Positions 961-6,346 of a DNA stretch of 6,346 nucleotides are shown in pieces. The stretch's first letter is position 1. Each line of letters opens with the position of its first letter. Source of the DNA: a virus (lineage: Duplodnaviria > Heunggongvirae > Uroviricota > Caudoviricetes). The translations under genes and the position numbers were made by a program. The stretch lies in IMG/VR virus record IMGVR_UViG_2660238176_000005; one strand, written 5' to 3'. Below the pieces are notes generated by a model, which worked only from the letters and a program-made list of their open reading frames with translations, searched no databases and was not told the DNA's origin.

Positions 961-1171
961 AAACGGTTTGCGGGAAAAGGAGAGTTAAGTAGAATTGCAG
1001 CGGGTGCTTGAGGCTATCTGTCTCAGGCATGAACACCAAAAGGCAGATAGAGAAAAGCCCCAGTTAACATTACGCGTCCGGCAAGACGCTTAACATTAAT
1101 CTGAGGCTCAATCTATGAACGGCAAATCTAGGTTAGCCTCTTACGTGCCGAAAGGCAAGGAGAAGCAGGCT

Positions 1172-1327
1172 ATGAAGCAGCAAAAGGCGATGTTAATCGC
1201 CCTGATCGTCATCTGTTTAACCGTCATAGTGACGGCACTGGTAACGAGGAAAGACCTCTGCGAGGTACGAATTCGAACCGGCCAGACGGAGGTCGCTGTC
1301 TTCACAGCTTACGAACCTGAGGAGTAA
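1172..1327 (+). CDS. hokD: Hok/Gef-family type I toxin (HokD/RelF-like), 51 aa
   Basis: Translation MKQQKAMLIALIVICLTVIVTALVTRKDLCEVRIRTGQTEVAVFTAYEPEE matches my recollection of E. coli HokD/RelF and the Hok/Gef consensus (N-terminal TM helix, conserved Cys, C-terminal periplasmic tail). AAGGAGA at 1157-1163 sits 8 nt before the ATG. The track ORF 1115-1327 is an in-frame upstream extension. Confidence 0.85.
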   Translation: MKQQKAMLIALIVICLTVIVTALVTRKDLCEVRIRTGQTEVAVFTAYEPEE

Positions 1328-2963: not shown

Positions 2964-3344
2964 ATGACCGAGCGCATAGAATTTGTTTTACCTTACCCGC
3001 CGACGGTGAACACTTACTGGCGTCGTCGTGGCAGCACATATTTTGTATCAAAAGCCGGGGAGCGTTATCGCCGGGCAGTGGCGCTTATTGTTCGCCAGCA
3101 GCGGCTGAAATTAAGCCTGTCCGGAAGGTTGGCAATAAAAATTATTGCAGAACCACCGGATAAGCGCCGCCGTGACCTGGACAATATTCTGAAAGCGCCG
3201 CTGGATGCGCTGACGCATGCGGGGTTGCTAATGGACGATGAGCAGTTTGATGAAATCAATATCGTTCGTGCTCAGCCAGTATCTGGTGGACGTCTGGGGG
3301 TGAAGATTTATCCCATAATGCTTGAAGGGCAGGTCAAAAAATGA
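2964..3344 (+). CDS. rusA: RusA-family Holliday junction resolvase, 126 aa
   Basis: Translation contains PPDKRRRDLDNILKAPLDALTHAGLLMDDEQ, matching the RusA catalytic acidic motif (RRRDLDN ... DD) as I recall it from E. coli RusA. The start ATG directly follows the DUF968 stop. Confidence 0.8.
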   Translation: MTERIEFVLPYPPTVNTYWRRRGSTYFVSKAGERYRRAVALIVRQQRLKLSLSGRLAIKIIAEPPDKRRRDLDNILKAPLDALTHAGLLMDDEQFDEINIVRAQPVSGGRLGVKIYPIMLEGQVKK

Positions 3345-4195
3345 AACTGGAAGATTTACCGAAATACTACTCCCCAAAATCCCCCGGCCTGACTGATGCA
3401 TCGGCCTCAACGTCGAAAGATGCGCTGAGTATCACTGATGTGATGGCCGCGCAGGGCATGACACAGAATCGGGCTGAGATGGGGGTTTCTGCGTTCCTTG
3501 GGAAAATGGGCATTAGTATGAATGACAGAGAGCGGGCAACAGAATTGCTGACAGAATATGCACTCAGTCGGTGTGATCGCGTGGCGGCGTTAAGAAAACT
3601 CCCGGCAGAAATAAAACCGGCAGTGATGCGTATTATGGCTTCGTATGCGTTTGAAGATTATGCCCGTAGCGCGGCGAGCAAAAAACAGTGCCCCTGCTGT
3701 CACGGAAAAAAATTTATTGAAAGCGAGGTTTTTACAAACAAGATCCAGTATCCGGATGGTAAGCCGCCGGTATGGGCAAAGTGTACGAAAGGTGTGTATC
3801 CGTCTTACTGGGAAGAATGGAAAAAAGTCAGGGAGGTGGTAAAAGTTGCCTGTCCGGAGTGTGGCGGAAAGGGTGAGGTTTCCACCGCCTGTAAGGATTG
3901 CCGTGGGCGTGGTGTCGCCATTCATCGTGAAGAGTCGGTAAAACGTGGTATGCCTGTTATCAGAGACTGCCAGCGTTGTGGTGGTCGTGGCTATGAAAGA
4001 CTACCATCAACGGAGGCATTTAATGCTATATGCGAGGTGACAAACCAGATAACACGCGCGTCATGGGAAAAAACAGTTAAGAAATTCTATGATGCGCTGG
4101 TGACTCGGTTTGATATTGAAGAAGCATGGGCTGAGCGGCAGTTAAAAAAGGTAACTAGGTTGATTTTTCCGGAATCTGTGGTAAATTCGTCATAA
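3341..4195 (+). CDS. Late-gene antitermination protein Q (phage 82/Qin QuuQ-like), 284 aa, with DnaJ-like zinc-finger repeats
   Basis: Start overlaps the rusA stop (ATGA). Central region carries CPCCHGKKF, CPECGGKGE, CKDCRGRG and CQRCGGRGYE, i.e. repeated CxxCxGxG motifs. Lies immediately upstream of a terminator and tRNA genes, as Q does in lambdoid/Stx phages. Confidence 0.7.
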   Translation: MKLEDLPKYYSPKSPGLTDASASTSKDALSITDVMAAQGMTQNRAEMGVSAFLGKMGISMNDRERATELLTEYALSRCDRVAALRKLPAEIKPAVMRIMASYAFEDYARSAASKKQCPCCHGKKFIESEVFTNKIQYPDGKPPVWAKCTKGVYPSYWEEWKKVREVVKVACPECGGKGEVSTACKDCRGRGVAIHREESVKRGMPVIRDCQRCGGRGYERLPSTEAFNAICEVTNQITRASWEKTVKKFYDALVTRFDIEEAWAERQLKKVTRLIFPESVVNSS

Positions 4196-4234
4196 CTATG
4201 GGCGTTTTATGCCTGACGTTAGAAGAGTTTCTAC

Positions 4235-4260
4235 AACCCGCCGCCGAGCGGGTTTTTTAT
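4235..4260 (+). terminator. Rho-independent terminator downstream of Q (candidate tR'-type site)
   Basis: CCCGC (4237-4241), 6-nt loop, GCGGG (4248-4252), then TTTTTT (4253-4258). Confidence 0.5.
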
Positions 4261-4288
4261 TGCGGAATTAATTACGGACCGTTATTAT
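4260..4288 (+). promoter_or_regulatory. Candidate sigma70 promoter directly upstream of the first tRNA
   Basis: TTGCGG (4260-4265), 17-nt spacer, TATTAT (4283-4288). The predicted start site falls about 7-10 nt later, at the 5' end of the tRNA (4298). Motif match only. Confidence 0.3.
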
Positions 4289-4297
4289 TCTGCTCCC

Positions 4298-4373
4298 GGC
4301 CCTTTAGCTCAGTGGTGAGAGCGAGCGACTCATAATCGCCAGGTCGCTGGTTCAAATCCAGCAAGGGCCACCA
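4298..4373 (+). tRNA. tRNA with anticodon CAU, most similar to minor tRNA-Ile2 (ileX/ileZ-like; decodes AUA after lysidine modification); Met cannot be excluded from the anticodon alone
   Basis: Full cloverleaf read by hand: acceptor GGCCCTT/AAGGGCC, D-arm GCTC-AGTGGTGA-GAGC, anticodon loop CTCATAA, T-arm GCTGG-TTCAAAT-CCAGC, discriminator A, encoded CCA. Near-identical to my memory of E. coli ileX. Confidence 0.8.
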
Positions 4374-4473
4374 TCACAAACCGCCATTAGCTTATCAGGA
4401 AGAGCAGACGACACGATAACAGGGTTGTTGGTGCGGGGGCGGGTCCCCGATGGCGGTCCATTATCGGTATTCA

Positions 4474-4550
4474 GCGTTGTTAGCTCAGCCGGACAGAGCA
4501 ATTGCCTTCTAAGCAATCGGTCACTGGTTCGAATCCAGTACAGCGCGCCA
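4474..4550 (+). tRNA. tRNA-Arg, anticodon UCU (decodes AGA/AGG); phage argN/argO-like
   Basis: Cloverleaf read by hand: acceptor GCGTTGT/ACAGCGC (one G-U pair), D-arm GCTC-AGCCGGACA-GAGC, anticodon loop CTTCTAA, T-arm ACTGG-TTCGAAT-CCAGT, discriminator G, encoded CCA. Confidence 0.8.
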
Positions 4551-4660
4551 TATTCATTCTTCCAGATTCCTTCCGGCAGAGCCTTATACTGAAATATACC
4601 TGGCTCAGGATATTGTTGAAAATATTTTATGTTTGTCAAAAATAAAAGTTCTGTTAAGTA

Positions 4661-5014
4661 TTGATTGAGTGTTTGTTATACGGTCTAATGGTTTTTTCAG
4701 CATTAAATATTTATCATTCATATGGTGTGGGTAGAGTGAATATTGATGAGGCGTCGGGGTGTTTCATCCTTAGGCAGCGTATTGATATAGTCAATGCAGC
4801 ACGAGCAAAGGCCTTCAGCCGTTTGACAGTTTTGTTCTGTACTCCTGATCGTCTTTCGGGAAGAGACGTTATTATTCTGAATAGTGATGCTATACAGAGG
4901 GTTTGCGATGAGTTCATGGTTGCTAATTCAGAATTATTTGCTCTTGTTCAGGAGTACAACAGAATAGCCAGGACCTGTGGTATGGATGAACTTCGGATTA
5001 CTCATCTGGGGTAG
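4661..5014 (+). CDS. Hypothetical cargo (moron) protein, up to 117 aa, start uncertain (TTG 4661, ATG 4688 or GTG 4727/4736)
   Basis: ORF co-directional with the tRNAs and ending 5012-5014. Of 11 Arg codons, 6 are AGA/AGG; of 11 Ile codons, 3 are AUA. These are the codons read by the two adjacent tRNAs. No strong Shine-Dalgarno sequence and no recognisable family. Confidence 0.45.
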   Translation: MIECLLYGLMVFSALNIYHSYGVGRVNIDEASGCFILRQRIDIVNAARAKAFSRLTVLFCTPDRLSGRDVIILNSDAIQRVCDEFMVANSELFALVQEYNRIARTCGMDELRITHLG

Positions 5015-5094
5015 ATACATATCTGGATTATCACCTGTTACGGTAAAAAGTGATTGCTTACTGTTTTTGTGAATGGCATTGCAGCAGCCGGATA

Positions 5095-5181
5095 ATGTCA
5101 GTGCTGGCTGACGGTGTGCTGGTGGCGGGTGTGGTGGTTGTTGCTTTCCCGTTGCTGAAAAAGAAAACGCCAGACTGTTAG
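5095..5181 (+). CDS. Possible small hydrophobic peptide, 28 aa (MSVLADGVLVAGVVVVAFPLLKKKTPDC); could equally be a gene remnant
   Basis: ATG at 5095 to TAG at 5179-5181; the frame is open back to 5047 with a GTG at 5050. Hydrophobic stretch followed by KKK. Weak ribosome-binding site. Confidence 0.2.
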   Translation: MSVLADGVLVAGVVVVAFPLLKKKTPDC

Positions 5182-5405
5182 CCGGGTATCAGTTAGCGGG
5201 AGAAATTTTTAAATACTTCACAATTCAGGCGGTTGACTGTTGTCTGGTTTGCGGGGAGTTTGTTAAAAGAAACTGGCATGGTGAATCCCCCTGTGCGGAG
5301 GGGCAATCAGCGAGTAGGTATATGGGATAATCGCGGATTCAGGTGCTGGTACTGAATTCACCGGGAGGCACCCGGCACCATGCAATGGCACATAGCGCCA
5401 CTCTC

Positions 5406-5445
5406 CAGCCCCTCTCCGGAGGGGCTGTTTATATTGATTTTGTCA
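5406..5445 (+). terminator. Rho-independent terminator ending the + strand tRNA/cargo transcription unit
   Basis: CAGCCCCTC (5406-5414), loop TCCG, GAGGGGCTG (5419-5427), then TTTATATTGATTTT. Confidence 0.6.
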
Positions 5446-5458
5446 GATGTGAGTAAAC

Positions 5459-5492
5459 TCCTTATGGACTTTGTTGTTTTAGTCCATAAGGA
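5459..5492 (-). repeat. Perfect 12-bp inverted repeat (TCCTTATGGACT / AGTCCATAAGGA) with 10-nt loop, overlapping the 3' end of the minus-strand ORF; possible terminator or RNA stability hairpin
   Basis: 5459-5470 is the exact reverse complement of 5481-5492. The stop codon of ORF 5462-5797 (-) lies inside the stem. Confidence 0.5.
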
Positions 5493-5797
5493 CATATTTG
5501 CAGAGTGCAACGGTTATTAAAGCATTCATTCAATACGTTATCTGTATTTGTAGGGCATTCCTGGCTATTTTTGATTGAATTCCAGAATGTTTTATTGAAT
5601 GGTACTACGTTGTAAATGGTTACAGGTAGCACTTTGTTATTGAGCATGATGCCTGTGTGAGTCAGTGTAAATATACTTTCAGGAGGTAAGAAAGCATCCG
5701 ATTGATACCAGATTATTAATTTTATTTTACTCCATATGACTGAAAAAGATATTCCGCATGATGGCTGGATAACTGTATCAATCACAATCCACTTCAT
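5462..5797 (-). CDS. Hypothetical protein, 111 aa, encoded in an AT-rich island; cysteine-containing C-terminal region
   Basis: Only sizeable ORF on the minus strand that does not overlap a + strand gene. Upstream on its own strand is ...CAAGGAAACTAA-ATG (AAGGA about 6 nt from the start). Local G+C is about 27-30% in the two 60-nt lines counted by hand, against an estimated 60% in a line counted inside the DUF968 gene. Transcribed convergently toward the + strand terminator. Confidence 0.5.
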
Positions 5798-6057
5798 TTA
5801 GTTTCCTTGTTTATGCCTTGCTGGTGATGTTCTGAAAAGTATAAATGATATTTTTGAATGTAAACCATAGAGCAGAATTATTTTTCTGATGTTGTTTATT
5901 GTTTATTTAAATGCAGGGTGGTTTATATCTCGTCTTGTAGTTTATCCATGCATATCTGCTTGATAATCAGGTTTTTATTTAAGGTATGGTTTTGTGTTTT
6001 TTCTGTATTACATGTCAGGTATTTTAAAGAATTATTTTTCAGATGGTGGAAAGAACC

Positions 6058-6184
6058 ATGGCATTTAAACACTATGATGTTGTCAGGGCGGCGCCGCCGT
6101 CAGATCTTGCGGAAAAGCTGACACATAAACTGAAAGAGGGCTGGCAGCCGTTTGGTAGTCCGGTGGCCATAACCCCTTATACCC
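6058..6184 (+). pseudogene. 5' fragment (42 codons, MAFKHYDVVRAAPPSDLAEKLTHKLKEGWQPFGSPVAITPY) of a gene interrupted by the right IS copy
   Basis: ATG at 6058 (an in-frame ATG also at 6043). The frame runs straight into the IS terminus at 6185, so the rest of the track ORF 6043-6231 is IS sequence. Confidence 0.4.
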
Positions 6185-6346
6185 TGAGGTGTACTGGCAA
6201 TAGCGGACACTACCATTTGTTCTTTTTTTAAGCAGCCATCTGATGATATTTTTCCCTGAAGGCTGCCGGGGAGATATTCCCCAGACGAGAGTGACGACGC
6301 TGACGATTGTAGAAAATCTCAATGTATTCCCGTATTACTGAGATGG
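6185..6346 (-). mobile_element. Second copy of the same IS3-family element end, inverted relative to 1-162, IRR facing inward, truncated by the window edge
   Basis: Exact reverse complement of 1-162; terminus TGAGGTG... begins at 6185. Confidence 0.7.
6228..6346 (-). CDS. IS3-family transposase OrfB, C-terminal fragment (minus strand; stop complement at 6228-6230)
   Basis: Mirror image of the 1-119 partial CDS. Confidence 0.7.
   Translation of the reverse strand, partial: ISVIREYIEIFYNRQRRHSRLGNISPAAFREKYHQMAA

Follow-up and report, generated by a model that had tools for sequence, protein, structure and literature searches.

The slot that holds stxAB in Shiga toxin (Stx) phages is the best-known site of induction-timed cargo, and what non-Stx prophages carry there is thus of interest. 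Here we analyse such a slot in IMG/VR virus record IMGVR_UViG_2660238176_000005, a 6,346-bp stretch (the window, in whose numbering all unlabelled positions are given) at the early-right to late-left junction of a lambdoid Escherichia coli prophage. On the + strand its upstream part carries hok/sok, a DUF968 gene, RusA and the antiterminator gene Q, and Q is followed by two tRNA genes, an open reading frame (ORF) ending at 5014, a DUF3927 gene and the small RNA (sRNA) STnc100 (Table 1). Positions 2965–6187 are 97% identical to a prophage of enteroaggregative E. coli (EAEC) strain 042, and the 4200–5200 stretch is 99.4% identical to phage mEp460_ev081. The original prediction, made from the letters of the window, took the ORF ending at 5014 for a 117-codon gene of no recognised family, expressed together with a rare-codon tRNA pair on prophage induction, and a plausible toxin, virulence or defence effector. 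Judged by its pattern of substitutions, the region 4736–5014 is indeed a genuine protein-coding gene under purifying selection. This gene, which we call ORF92, is probably 92 codons long, belongs to the uncharacterised family phrog_2873, and lies where Stx phages carry their toxin genes.

Table 1 Features of the window on either side of ORF92, in window numbering.
Feature	Position	Strand	Basis and remarks
hok/sok type I toxin-antitoxin locus	sok 1002–1177		Rfam; hokD-like ORF ends at 1327
Q antiterminator gene	3341–4195	+	284 aa, PF03589 type, DnaJ-like zinc-finger motifs
Candidate lambda-like late promoter PR' with −10-like pause element	4160–4199	+	read from sequence by likeness to lambda PR'
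Predicted intrinsic terminator (tR' analogue)	4235–4262	+	7-bp stem with 5 GC pairs, 6-nt loop, then TTTTTTATT
tRNA-Ile2 (anticodon CAU), homologue of Stx-phage ileZ	4298–4373	+	ARAGORN, Rfam
Decayed argN pseudo-tRNA	4381–4460	+	alignment with Stx2-phage ileZ-argN-argO
tRNA-Arg (anticodon UCU), homologue of Stx-phage argO	4474–4550	+	ARAGORN, Rfam
In-frame upstream extension, most likely untranslated 5' leader	4661–4735	+	25 codons, not conserved
ORF92, gene by its substitution pattern	4736–5014	+	92 codons, probable GTG start, phrog_2873; product 10.4 kDa, isoelectric point 5.7
DUF3927 (P1 TciB-like) gene, small single-pass membrane protein	5050–5181	+	Pfam E 1.7e-27; phrog_1470
STnc100 prophage sRNA	5247–5436	+	Rfam RF02076, 132 bits; own terminator 5406–5427
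iraM homologue (RssB anti-adaptor), prophage-borne	5462–5797	−	NCBIfam E 4.7e-48

Coding status and extent of ORF92

Four lineages of the gene were compared: that of the window, one from Shiga toxin-producing E. coli (STEC; loci L003 and L004), one from enterotoxigenic and bovine E. coli (ETEC/bovine; L005 and L015) and one from a prophage of the Citrobacter freundii complex (L007). The proteins of the last three are 59%, 63% and 38% identical to that of the window, respectively. The three E. coli lineages are 71–76% identical at the DNA level; in all of them the 92-codon frame is open with zero indels, and the ratio of nonsynonymous to synonymous substitution rates (dN/dS) of this core is 0.26–0.27 vs. 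about 0.8–1.7 in four of five control frames. Third codon positions are enriched in differences (24/23/43, 19/19/39 and 24/18/40 over the codon positions; chi-square p 0.006–0.015), and the sense frame is the only one that is free of stops in all four lineages, including Citrobacter, where the homologue likewise lies between Q and the holins. Variation within the window lineage points the same way: in 72 near-identical copies from IMG/VR, polymorphisms are sparsest in the core (3.6 per 100 nt) when compared with the rest of the region, and there the core shows 6 synonymous and 5 nonsynonymous changes and neither stops nor indels. The gene is present in 1,314 of 5,426 complete E. coli genomes, among them EAEC 042 and O104:H4, whose locus is 99.2–99.5% identical, and in 1,169 of those 1,314 it is at least 99% identical. 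Sister alleles are annotated as 92-aa proteins by the Prokaryotic Genome Annotation Pipeline (PGAP). An antisense ORF at 4714–4917 was also considered as the true gene and was rejected, given stops in three of the four lineages.

The extent of the gene differs from what had been proposed. An open frame of 117 codons from a TTG at 4661 to 5014 does exist, but its first 25 codons are frameshifted or stopped in sister lineages: L004 has a frameshift plus a stop within this extension, and in L005 a stop precedes the conserved block by ten codons. Within the window lineage, the extension has accumulated four nonsynonymous vs. one synonymous polymorphisms, plus a 1-nt deletion. An ATG at codon 10 of the 117-codon frame is neither conserved nor preceded by a Shine-Dalgarno sequence. 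The PGAP-annotated 92-aa homologues WP_001017777.1 and WP_047671475.1, from two lineages, start at the same GTG ('VNID...'), which in L005 has AGGAG 5 nt before it, and distant homologues have an ATG start at the aligned residue, behind Shine-Dalgarno sequences. Since the upstream block is unconserved and homologues start at this GTG or at the aligned ATG, the gene probably comprises 92 codons from GTG 4736 rather than 117 from TTG 4661, and the first 25 codons of the longer frame are very probably untranslated. Starts at the TTG (117 codons) and at the ATG (108 codons) were both rejected on the decay of the extension, the starts of the homologues and the polymorphism data.

The tRNA cluster and the putative late promoter

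The layout of Q, terminator, tRNA-Ile2(CAU), tRNA-Arg(UCU) and cargo gene was described correctly by the original prediction, in that all its elements are physically present, and PGAP labels tRNA-Ile and tRNA-Arg in near-identical (99.4–99.7%) E. coli DNA. We aligned the stretch 4230–4600 with the Stx2 phage Stx2a_WGPS8 (AP012540). The tRNA(CAU) gene is base-for-base identical to ileZ of that phage, and the tRNA-Arg(UCU) gene differs from argO by one compensated base in the acceptor stem. The 100-nt 'spacer' between them is a relic of argN that keeps both acceptor arms, its anticodon stem-loop region having been replaced or scrambled; neither ARAGORN nor Rfam (E ≤ 1) calls a tRNA there. Thus both tRNAs are real and the cluster is better described as a degenerate triplet with a decayed argN than as a pair. 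Over 306–308 nt the tRNA block matches ileZ-argN-argO of Stx2 phages at 88% identity. Homology stops just past argO, and in the Stx2 phage stx2A begins 92 nt further on. Because the homology ends right after argO, ORF92 does occupy the stxAB position, as had been proposed; homology to stx itself was not found. The holin, lysozyme and Rz genes of E. coli 042 lie some 3.3 kb further downstream, a part that is cut off in the window by IS600. With Q upstream, a candidate PR'-like promoter plus terminator, a tRNA cluster and cargo ahead of the lysis genes, the site has the make-up of a Stx-phage-type late moron site. Literature searches on ileZ/argN/argO and on TciA/TciB returned almost nothing relevant.

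A Stx-phage-like late region without stx is also present in E. coli O43 RM10042 (L004, positions 2693–6845 of that locus). Its stx slot holds tRNA-Ile, tRNA-Arg(UCG), a TolA-like gene, a DNA methyltransferase remnant, an AraC-type (YdeO/AppY-like) regulator and an unannotated homologue of the ORF92 hairpin protein, beyond which lie about 1.5 kb of unannotated sequence and then a SASA (NanS-p-like) esterase gene.

The Q product matches the Pfam family Antiterm (PF03589) with E 1.8e-53 as well as phrog_127 and phrog_25523 (anti-termination protein Q-like), and in E. coli 042 PGAP names it 'antitermination protein'. Overlapping the 3' end and stop codon of Q is a candidate late promoter, read as TTGATT, 16 nt, (TGg)TAAATT, 6 nt, AACTAT and GGG. 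The lambda sequence, compared directly, has TTGACT, 17 nt, TAAATT, 6 nt, AACGAT and GGG, which there make up PR' and its promoter-proximal pause element. This near-identical spacing occurs although the Q family differs from that of lambda. The terminator scan places the hairpin itself at 4235–4254, with the T-run behind it. From these elements we infer that PR' would start transcription near 4194 and give a terminated RNA of about 69 nt unless Q acts, and the terminator is the predicted target of Q-mediated readthrough. A second hairpin, at 4850–4868, was rejected as a terminator, having only three GC pairs and lying inside the conserved coding region.

Protein family, predicted fold and neighbouring genes

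No family had been recognised for the ORF, and the one to which it belongs is indeed uncharacterised, although entries exist in both PHROG and NCBI. Residues 10–117 of the 117-codon translation match positions 1–108 of the 108-position profile phrog_2873 with E 3.8e-70, relatives match it with E 1e-11 to 1e-48, and there is a weaker match to the sister family phrog_4827; both families are of unknown function. NCBI deposits are named 'hypothetical protein' (for example WP_001017777.1, WP_047671475.1 and WP_097292279.1). An exhaustive profile search of 1.8 billion representatives gave only 23 hits, so that the family is small and specific. Whether queried with the window protein or with the homologue from Citrobacter, tblastn of 50,697 phage records matched only mEp460_ev081; a profile scan of genome contigs found two loci only, and an exact look-up of the protein P0013 gave no match. 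Pfam, NCBIfam and PADLOC gave no significant match for the ORF92 protein: no Pfam or NCBIfam family reached its curated cut-off (one sub-threshold RHIM hit had E 0.093), and PADLOC at E ≤ 1 had no hits for ORF92, two of its homologues, the DUF3927 protein or the IraM homologue. A sequence profile search of the PDB yielded nothing better than E 0.038. The UniRef name 'GGDEF domain-containing protein' on one cluster member was rejected for want of Pfam support.

In the AlphaFold2 prediction two helices, residues 3–33/35 and 50–81, form an antiparallel hairpin. Two runs, with 6 and 10 sequences, gave a predicted local distance difference test score (pLDDT) of 84.1 and 88.6 and a predicted template modelling score (pTM) of 0.71 and 0.75, respectively. 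The most conserved segment, FSRLTV.F.TPDR.SG..V.ILN, is the connection between the helices, and Y74 and N75 are likewise among the most conserved residues. Hydropathy over 19 residues peaks at 0.94, which leaves no room for a transmembrane or hydrophobic signal-like segment, and the product is predicted to be a soluble, mildly acidic helical hairpin. Fold searches returned generic hairpins only, with no specific match.

The DUF3927 gene begins 35 nt past ORF92 and is annotated by PGAP; its product has a Kyte-Doolittle 19-residue maximum of 2.47, and the two genes are probably co-transcribed. In relatives the position of ORF92 is always accessory and mostly between Q and the holins. The order ORF92, TerB, DUF3927 is found in E. 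coli ARS-C301 (L015), in a contig of a metagenome bin (L020) and in Citrobacter (L007); among viral contigs it occurs in 9 of 19 of lineage C and in both of the Citrobacter type. The TerB/DUF3927 pair of L015 (4593–5152) is about 97% identical in protein sequence to that of L007 (5489–6063), vs. only about 40% for the ORF92 alleles, which suggests that TerB/DUF3927 may be a recently exchanged mobile two-gene cassette. ORF92 itself is dispensable, since the related phage vB_EcoS-640R1 (L101, ON470612.1) does without it: at 3290–3560 of that phage argO ends within its anticodon loop and passes straight into a divergent DUF3927 coding region, and the 92-aa gene is absent. Members of phrog_4827, namely L012/L013 (P0034) and L018 (P0033), sit in tail-gene modules: one site is flanked by the genes for tail completion and the tail tube, and the other just precedes the gene for a Mu-like DNA-circulation protein. 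The superfamily as a whole thus also occupies sites other than the late-promoter slot.

Downstream, STnc100 forms the boundary of the cassette and is common to the L003 lineage (shared segments 5173–5303 and 5357–5384). STnc100 has been discussed as related to PasD (bioRxiv 10.64898/2026.05.13.724894). The sRNA and the iraM homologue are convergent, and Q-driven late transcription would cross iraM antisense. The downstream end of the window holds a truncated DUF1737 gene (Pfam). The window ends, 1–162 and 6185–6346, are perfect 162-nt inverted repeats that consist of the 3' end of the transposase gene of IS600, an insertion sequence (IS) of the IS3 family, together with the terminal repeat of that element. 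Similarity to E. coli 042 breaks off at 6187, within the DUF1737 gene, and picks up again at 164, so that the 6-kb prophage fragment is flanked by IS600 copies in inverted orientation. The arrangement may be akin to a composite transposon, or an assembly may have broken at two IS insertions. Near the other end, a 29-nt direct repeat (465–493 and 668–696, 86% identical) lies within the adjacent small ORFs 372–539 and 536–880, which have the motif 'IAL.SL.AEP' in common and may encode paralogous small proteins.

Interpretation and likeness to known systems

What, then, does ORF92 do? We consider it reasonably likely that the gene is a conserved phrog_2873 moron of the late operon at the stxAB position whose hairpin product acts by binding another protein. 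Transcription would start at the lambda-like PR' overlapping the end of Q, and the transcript would stop at the terminator unless Q modifies RNA polymerase. After induction, Q-modified polymerase would read through the terminator and through ileZ, the dead argN and argO, with the tRNA cluster processed out, and would continue into ORF92 and the TciB-like DUF3927 gene. As the product has neither a catalytic domain nor a membrane-spanning segment, a binding protein seems a better description than an enzyme or an exported toxin, and binding another protein is, going by the predicted structure, its most likely mode of action. Both this role and the Q-dependent expression are inferred. Speculatively, the partner might be the membrane-associated TerB/DUF3927 pair or an AraC-type (YdeO/AppY-like) regulator such as WP_000382065.1.

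A number of points weigh against this account. PGAP leaves the frame unannotated in 36 of 36 records at least 99% identical, among the matches listed, and one antisense frame also has a low dN/dS (0.23–0.38), although it has wobble positions in common with the sense frame and is interrupted by stops in three of the four lineages. The Shine-Dalgarno sequence ahead of GTG 4736 is weak in the window lineage (GGUG/GGGU), and the ATG at 4688, the start used in the 108-aa NCBI and PHROG versions of this allele, is a less probable alternative for this lineage. The evidence for PR' is its similarity to lambda; the candidate falls below the threshold of a consensus scanner, with 8 of 12 positions matched. 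A generic helical-hairpin fold, itself predicted, would carry no functional information. As for the partners, the window contains neither TerB, there being only 35 nt between ORF92 and DUF3927, nor an AraC gene; about half of the lineage-C loci are without both TerB and DUF3927; and, as TerB and DUF3927 are far more alike between lineages than the ORF92 alleles are, the pair moves independently of ORF92. Elsewhere, homologues have GerE or PapB regulators nearby or sit within tail modules.

Among the alternatives, the one that survives best, and that we nevertheless regard as unlikely, is that ORF92 encodes a small anti-activator or modulator that binds an AraC-type (YdeO/AppY/GadX-like) regulator in the manner of ANR/Aar or TraM and has become an orphan in the window. 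An intact AraC-family gene of 241 aa precedes the homologue in 78 STEC-type genomes, ending 94 nt short of its GTG, and in L103 another AraC allele, with 64% identity to the first, lies directly upstream of a different ORF92 allele. The window and L003 become homologous at the nucleotide level 20 nt past the AraC stop codon, which indicates that the window retains the intergenic leader and not the regulator gene. The neighbouring GerE and PapB regulator genes of other homologues would also fit, as would the helical hairpin fold, TraM (2q0o_D) being among the generic Foldseek hits. That match is non-significant, however (E 1.6), and there is no sequence similarity to known anti-activator families. 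The AraC linkage amounts to two allele pairs, none of them in the window lineage; most copies, namely those in the more than 1,100 genomes of that lineage, lack a regulator gene beside them, and adjacency in mosaic prophages is a weak sign of a functional link.

We find it less likely still that the gene is what it was originally taken for, namely a 117-codon TTG gene co-adapted to ileZ and argO that encodes an induction-timed, Stx-like toxin, virulence or abortive-infection effector. It does share its slot with stxAB, and the codon counts given for the 117-codon frame are exact (3 AGA and 3 AGG among 11 Arg codons, 3 AUA among 11 Ile codons). In addition, the 92-codon gene has the highest density of AGA, AGG and AUA when ranked with 19 annotated genes of the 042 prophage (8.7 vs. 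2.9 per 100 codons, p = 0.007 uncorrected). The proposed skew towards the codons of the adjacent tRNAs fares less well. Against the window's own genes, AGR vs. CGN is marginal by Fisher's test (p = 0.025 for 117 codons, 0.056 for 92), AGA alone is not significant, and AUA vs. AUY is not enriched (p = 1.0; the AUA tests gave p = 1.0 and 0.69). The UCU anticodon reads AGG only by wobble. Out of frame, the same DNA contains 7 AGA, AGG or AUA triplets in frame +1 and 12 in antisense frame −1 (local GC 0.44); with other frames equally or more rich in these triplets, local base composition explains much of the signal. Orthologues have only 3–5 such codons, at different positions, and no Ile or Arg tRNA gene was found in the upstream sequence examined for L005 (5 kb) and L015 (4 kb). 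Codon-tRNA co-adaptation was therefore rejected as evidence of coding, the statistics being weak, composition having its effect and the rare codons being unconserved; the codon argument is weak, and unnecessary given the evolutionary evidence. The 117-codon gene has the unconserved N-terminal 25 codons against it as well, with their frameshift or stop in L004 and L005, their 4:1 ratio of nonsynonymous to synonymous changes and their deletion. Nor does the product look like an effector, as it lacks a hydrophobic segment, an enzymatic domain, a PADLOC hit and a specific, let alone toxin-like, fold. Compared with Shiga/AB5 toxins, it has no Pfam or NCBIfam hit and no signal-like segment, and its predicted fold is a two-helix hairpin.

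Very improbable indeed is the absence of any gene, with a chance ORF in an AT-rich spacer or conservation due to an RNA element or the antisense ORF: the lack of PGAP annotation in the window lineage, the GTG start with its weak Shine-Dalgarno sequence and the low dN/dS of one antisense frame would suit it, against which stand the sense frame as the only one stop-free in four lineages, down to Citrobacter at 38% amino-acid identity, the third-position excess with a dN/dS of 0.26, the PGAP-annotated sister alleles, the lack of any Rfam RNA family in the stretch at E ≤ 1, and a confident AlphaFold2 model that improves with more diverse homologues.

To return to ORF92 as a late-operon moron with a binding role, the gene joins the lambdoid late-region morons, and its protein comes from an already catalogued family of hypothetical proteins. 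No new toxin or defence system is indicated, and the result is useful, if not surprising to a phage specialist. Reference annotation usually misses the gene. Its coordinates and the evidence for purifying selection provide a defined target for annotators and experimentalists, and the recurrent neighbours, TerB/DUF3927 and AraC-type regulators, point to specific, low-cost interaction tests. A bolder and rather unlikely proposal is that phrog_2873 proteins are a new class of prophage adaptor, made on induction, that modulates the TerB/DUF3927 pair or AraC-type regulators. If this were true, the adaptor and TerB/DUF3927 could form a compact Ter-like exclusion or envelope-stress module, or the adaptor could act on AraC-type regulators of acid resistance and virulence; in roughly one E. 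coli genome in four, lytic induction would then be tied to the regulation of the host.

Several known systems resemble parts of this locus. The anti-activators ANR/Aar and TraM are of similar size and are all-helical hairpins, and ORF92 occasionally adjoins AraC-family genes; with no detectable homology, the likeness is one of analogy only. In P1, tciA-tciB is annotated as 'tellurite/colicin resistance, inhibition of cell division'. Like P1 tciA-tciB and the plasmid Ter systems, the window has a DUF3927/TciB-like gene, placed after ORF92, and relatives have TerB plus DUF3927, but TerB is missing from the window and the ORF92 protein is without sequence similarity to Ter or Tci proteins. The orf-64 position of lambda, between PR'/tR' and S, likewise holds a small non-essential ORF between the Q-controlled promoter and the lysis cassette, with a PR' architecture that is much alike; lambda has no tRNA genes there, and orf-64 and ORF92 have no sequence relationship. 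The sister alleles in phrog_2873 and NCBI are closest, being 59–63% identical to the window protein with the same length and start position, whereas the PHROG and NCBI versions of the window allele itself run to 108 aa from ATG 4688, vs. the conserved core of 92 aa. Finally, the stxAB slot of the 933W type, here represented by Stx2a_WGPS8, differs in its Q, which is shorter in the Stx2 phage than the 284-aa PF03589 protein of the window, in its argN, which is decayed in the window, and in its cargo, an AB5 toxin in place of a 92-aa predicted hairpin and DUF3927. The order of Q, late promoter and terminator, ileZ-argN-argO, cargo and lysis genes is the same in both.

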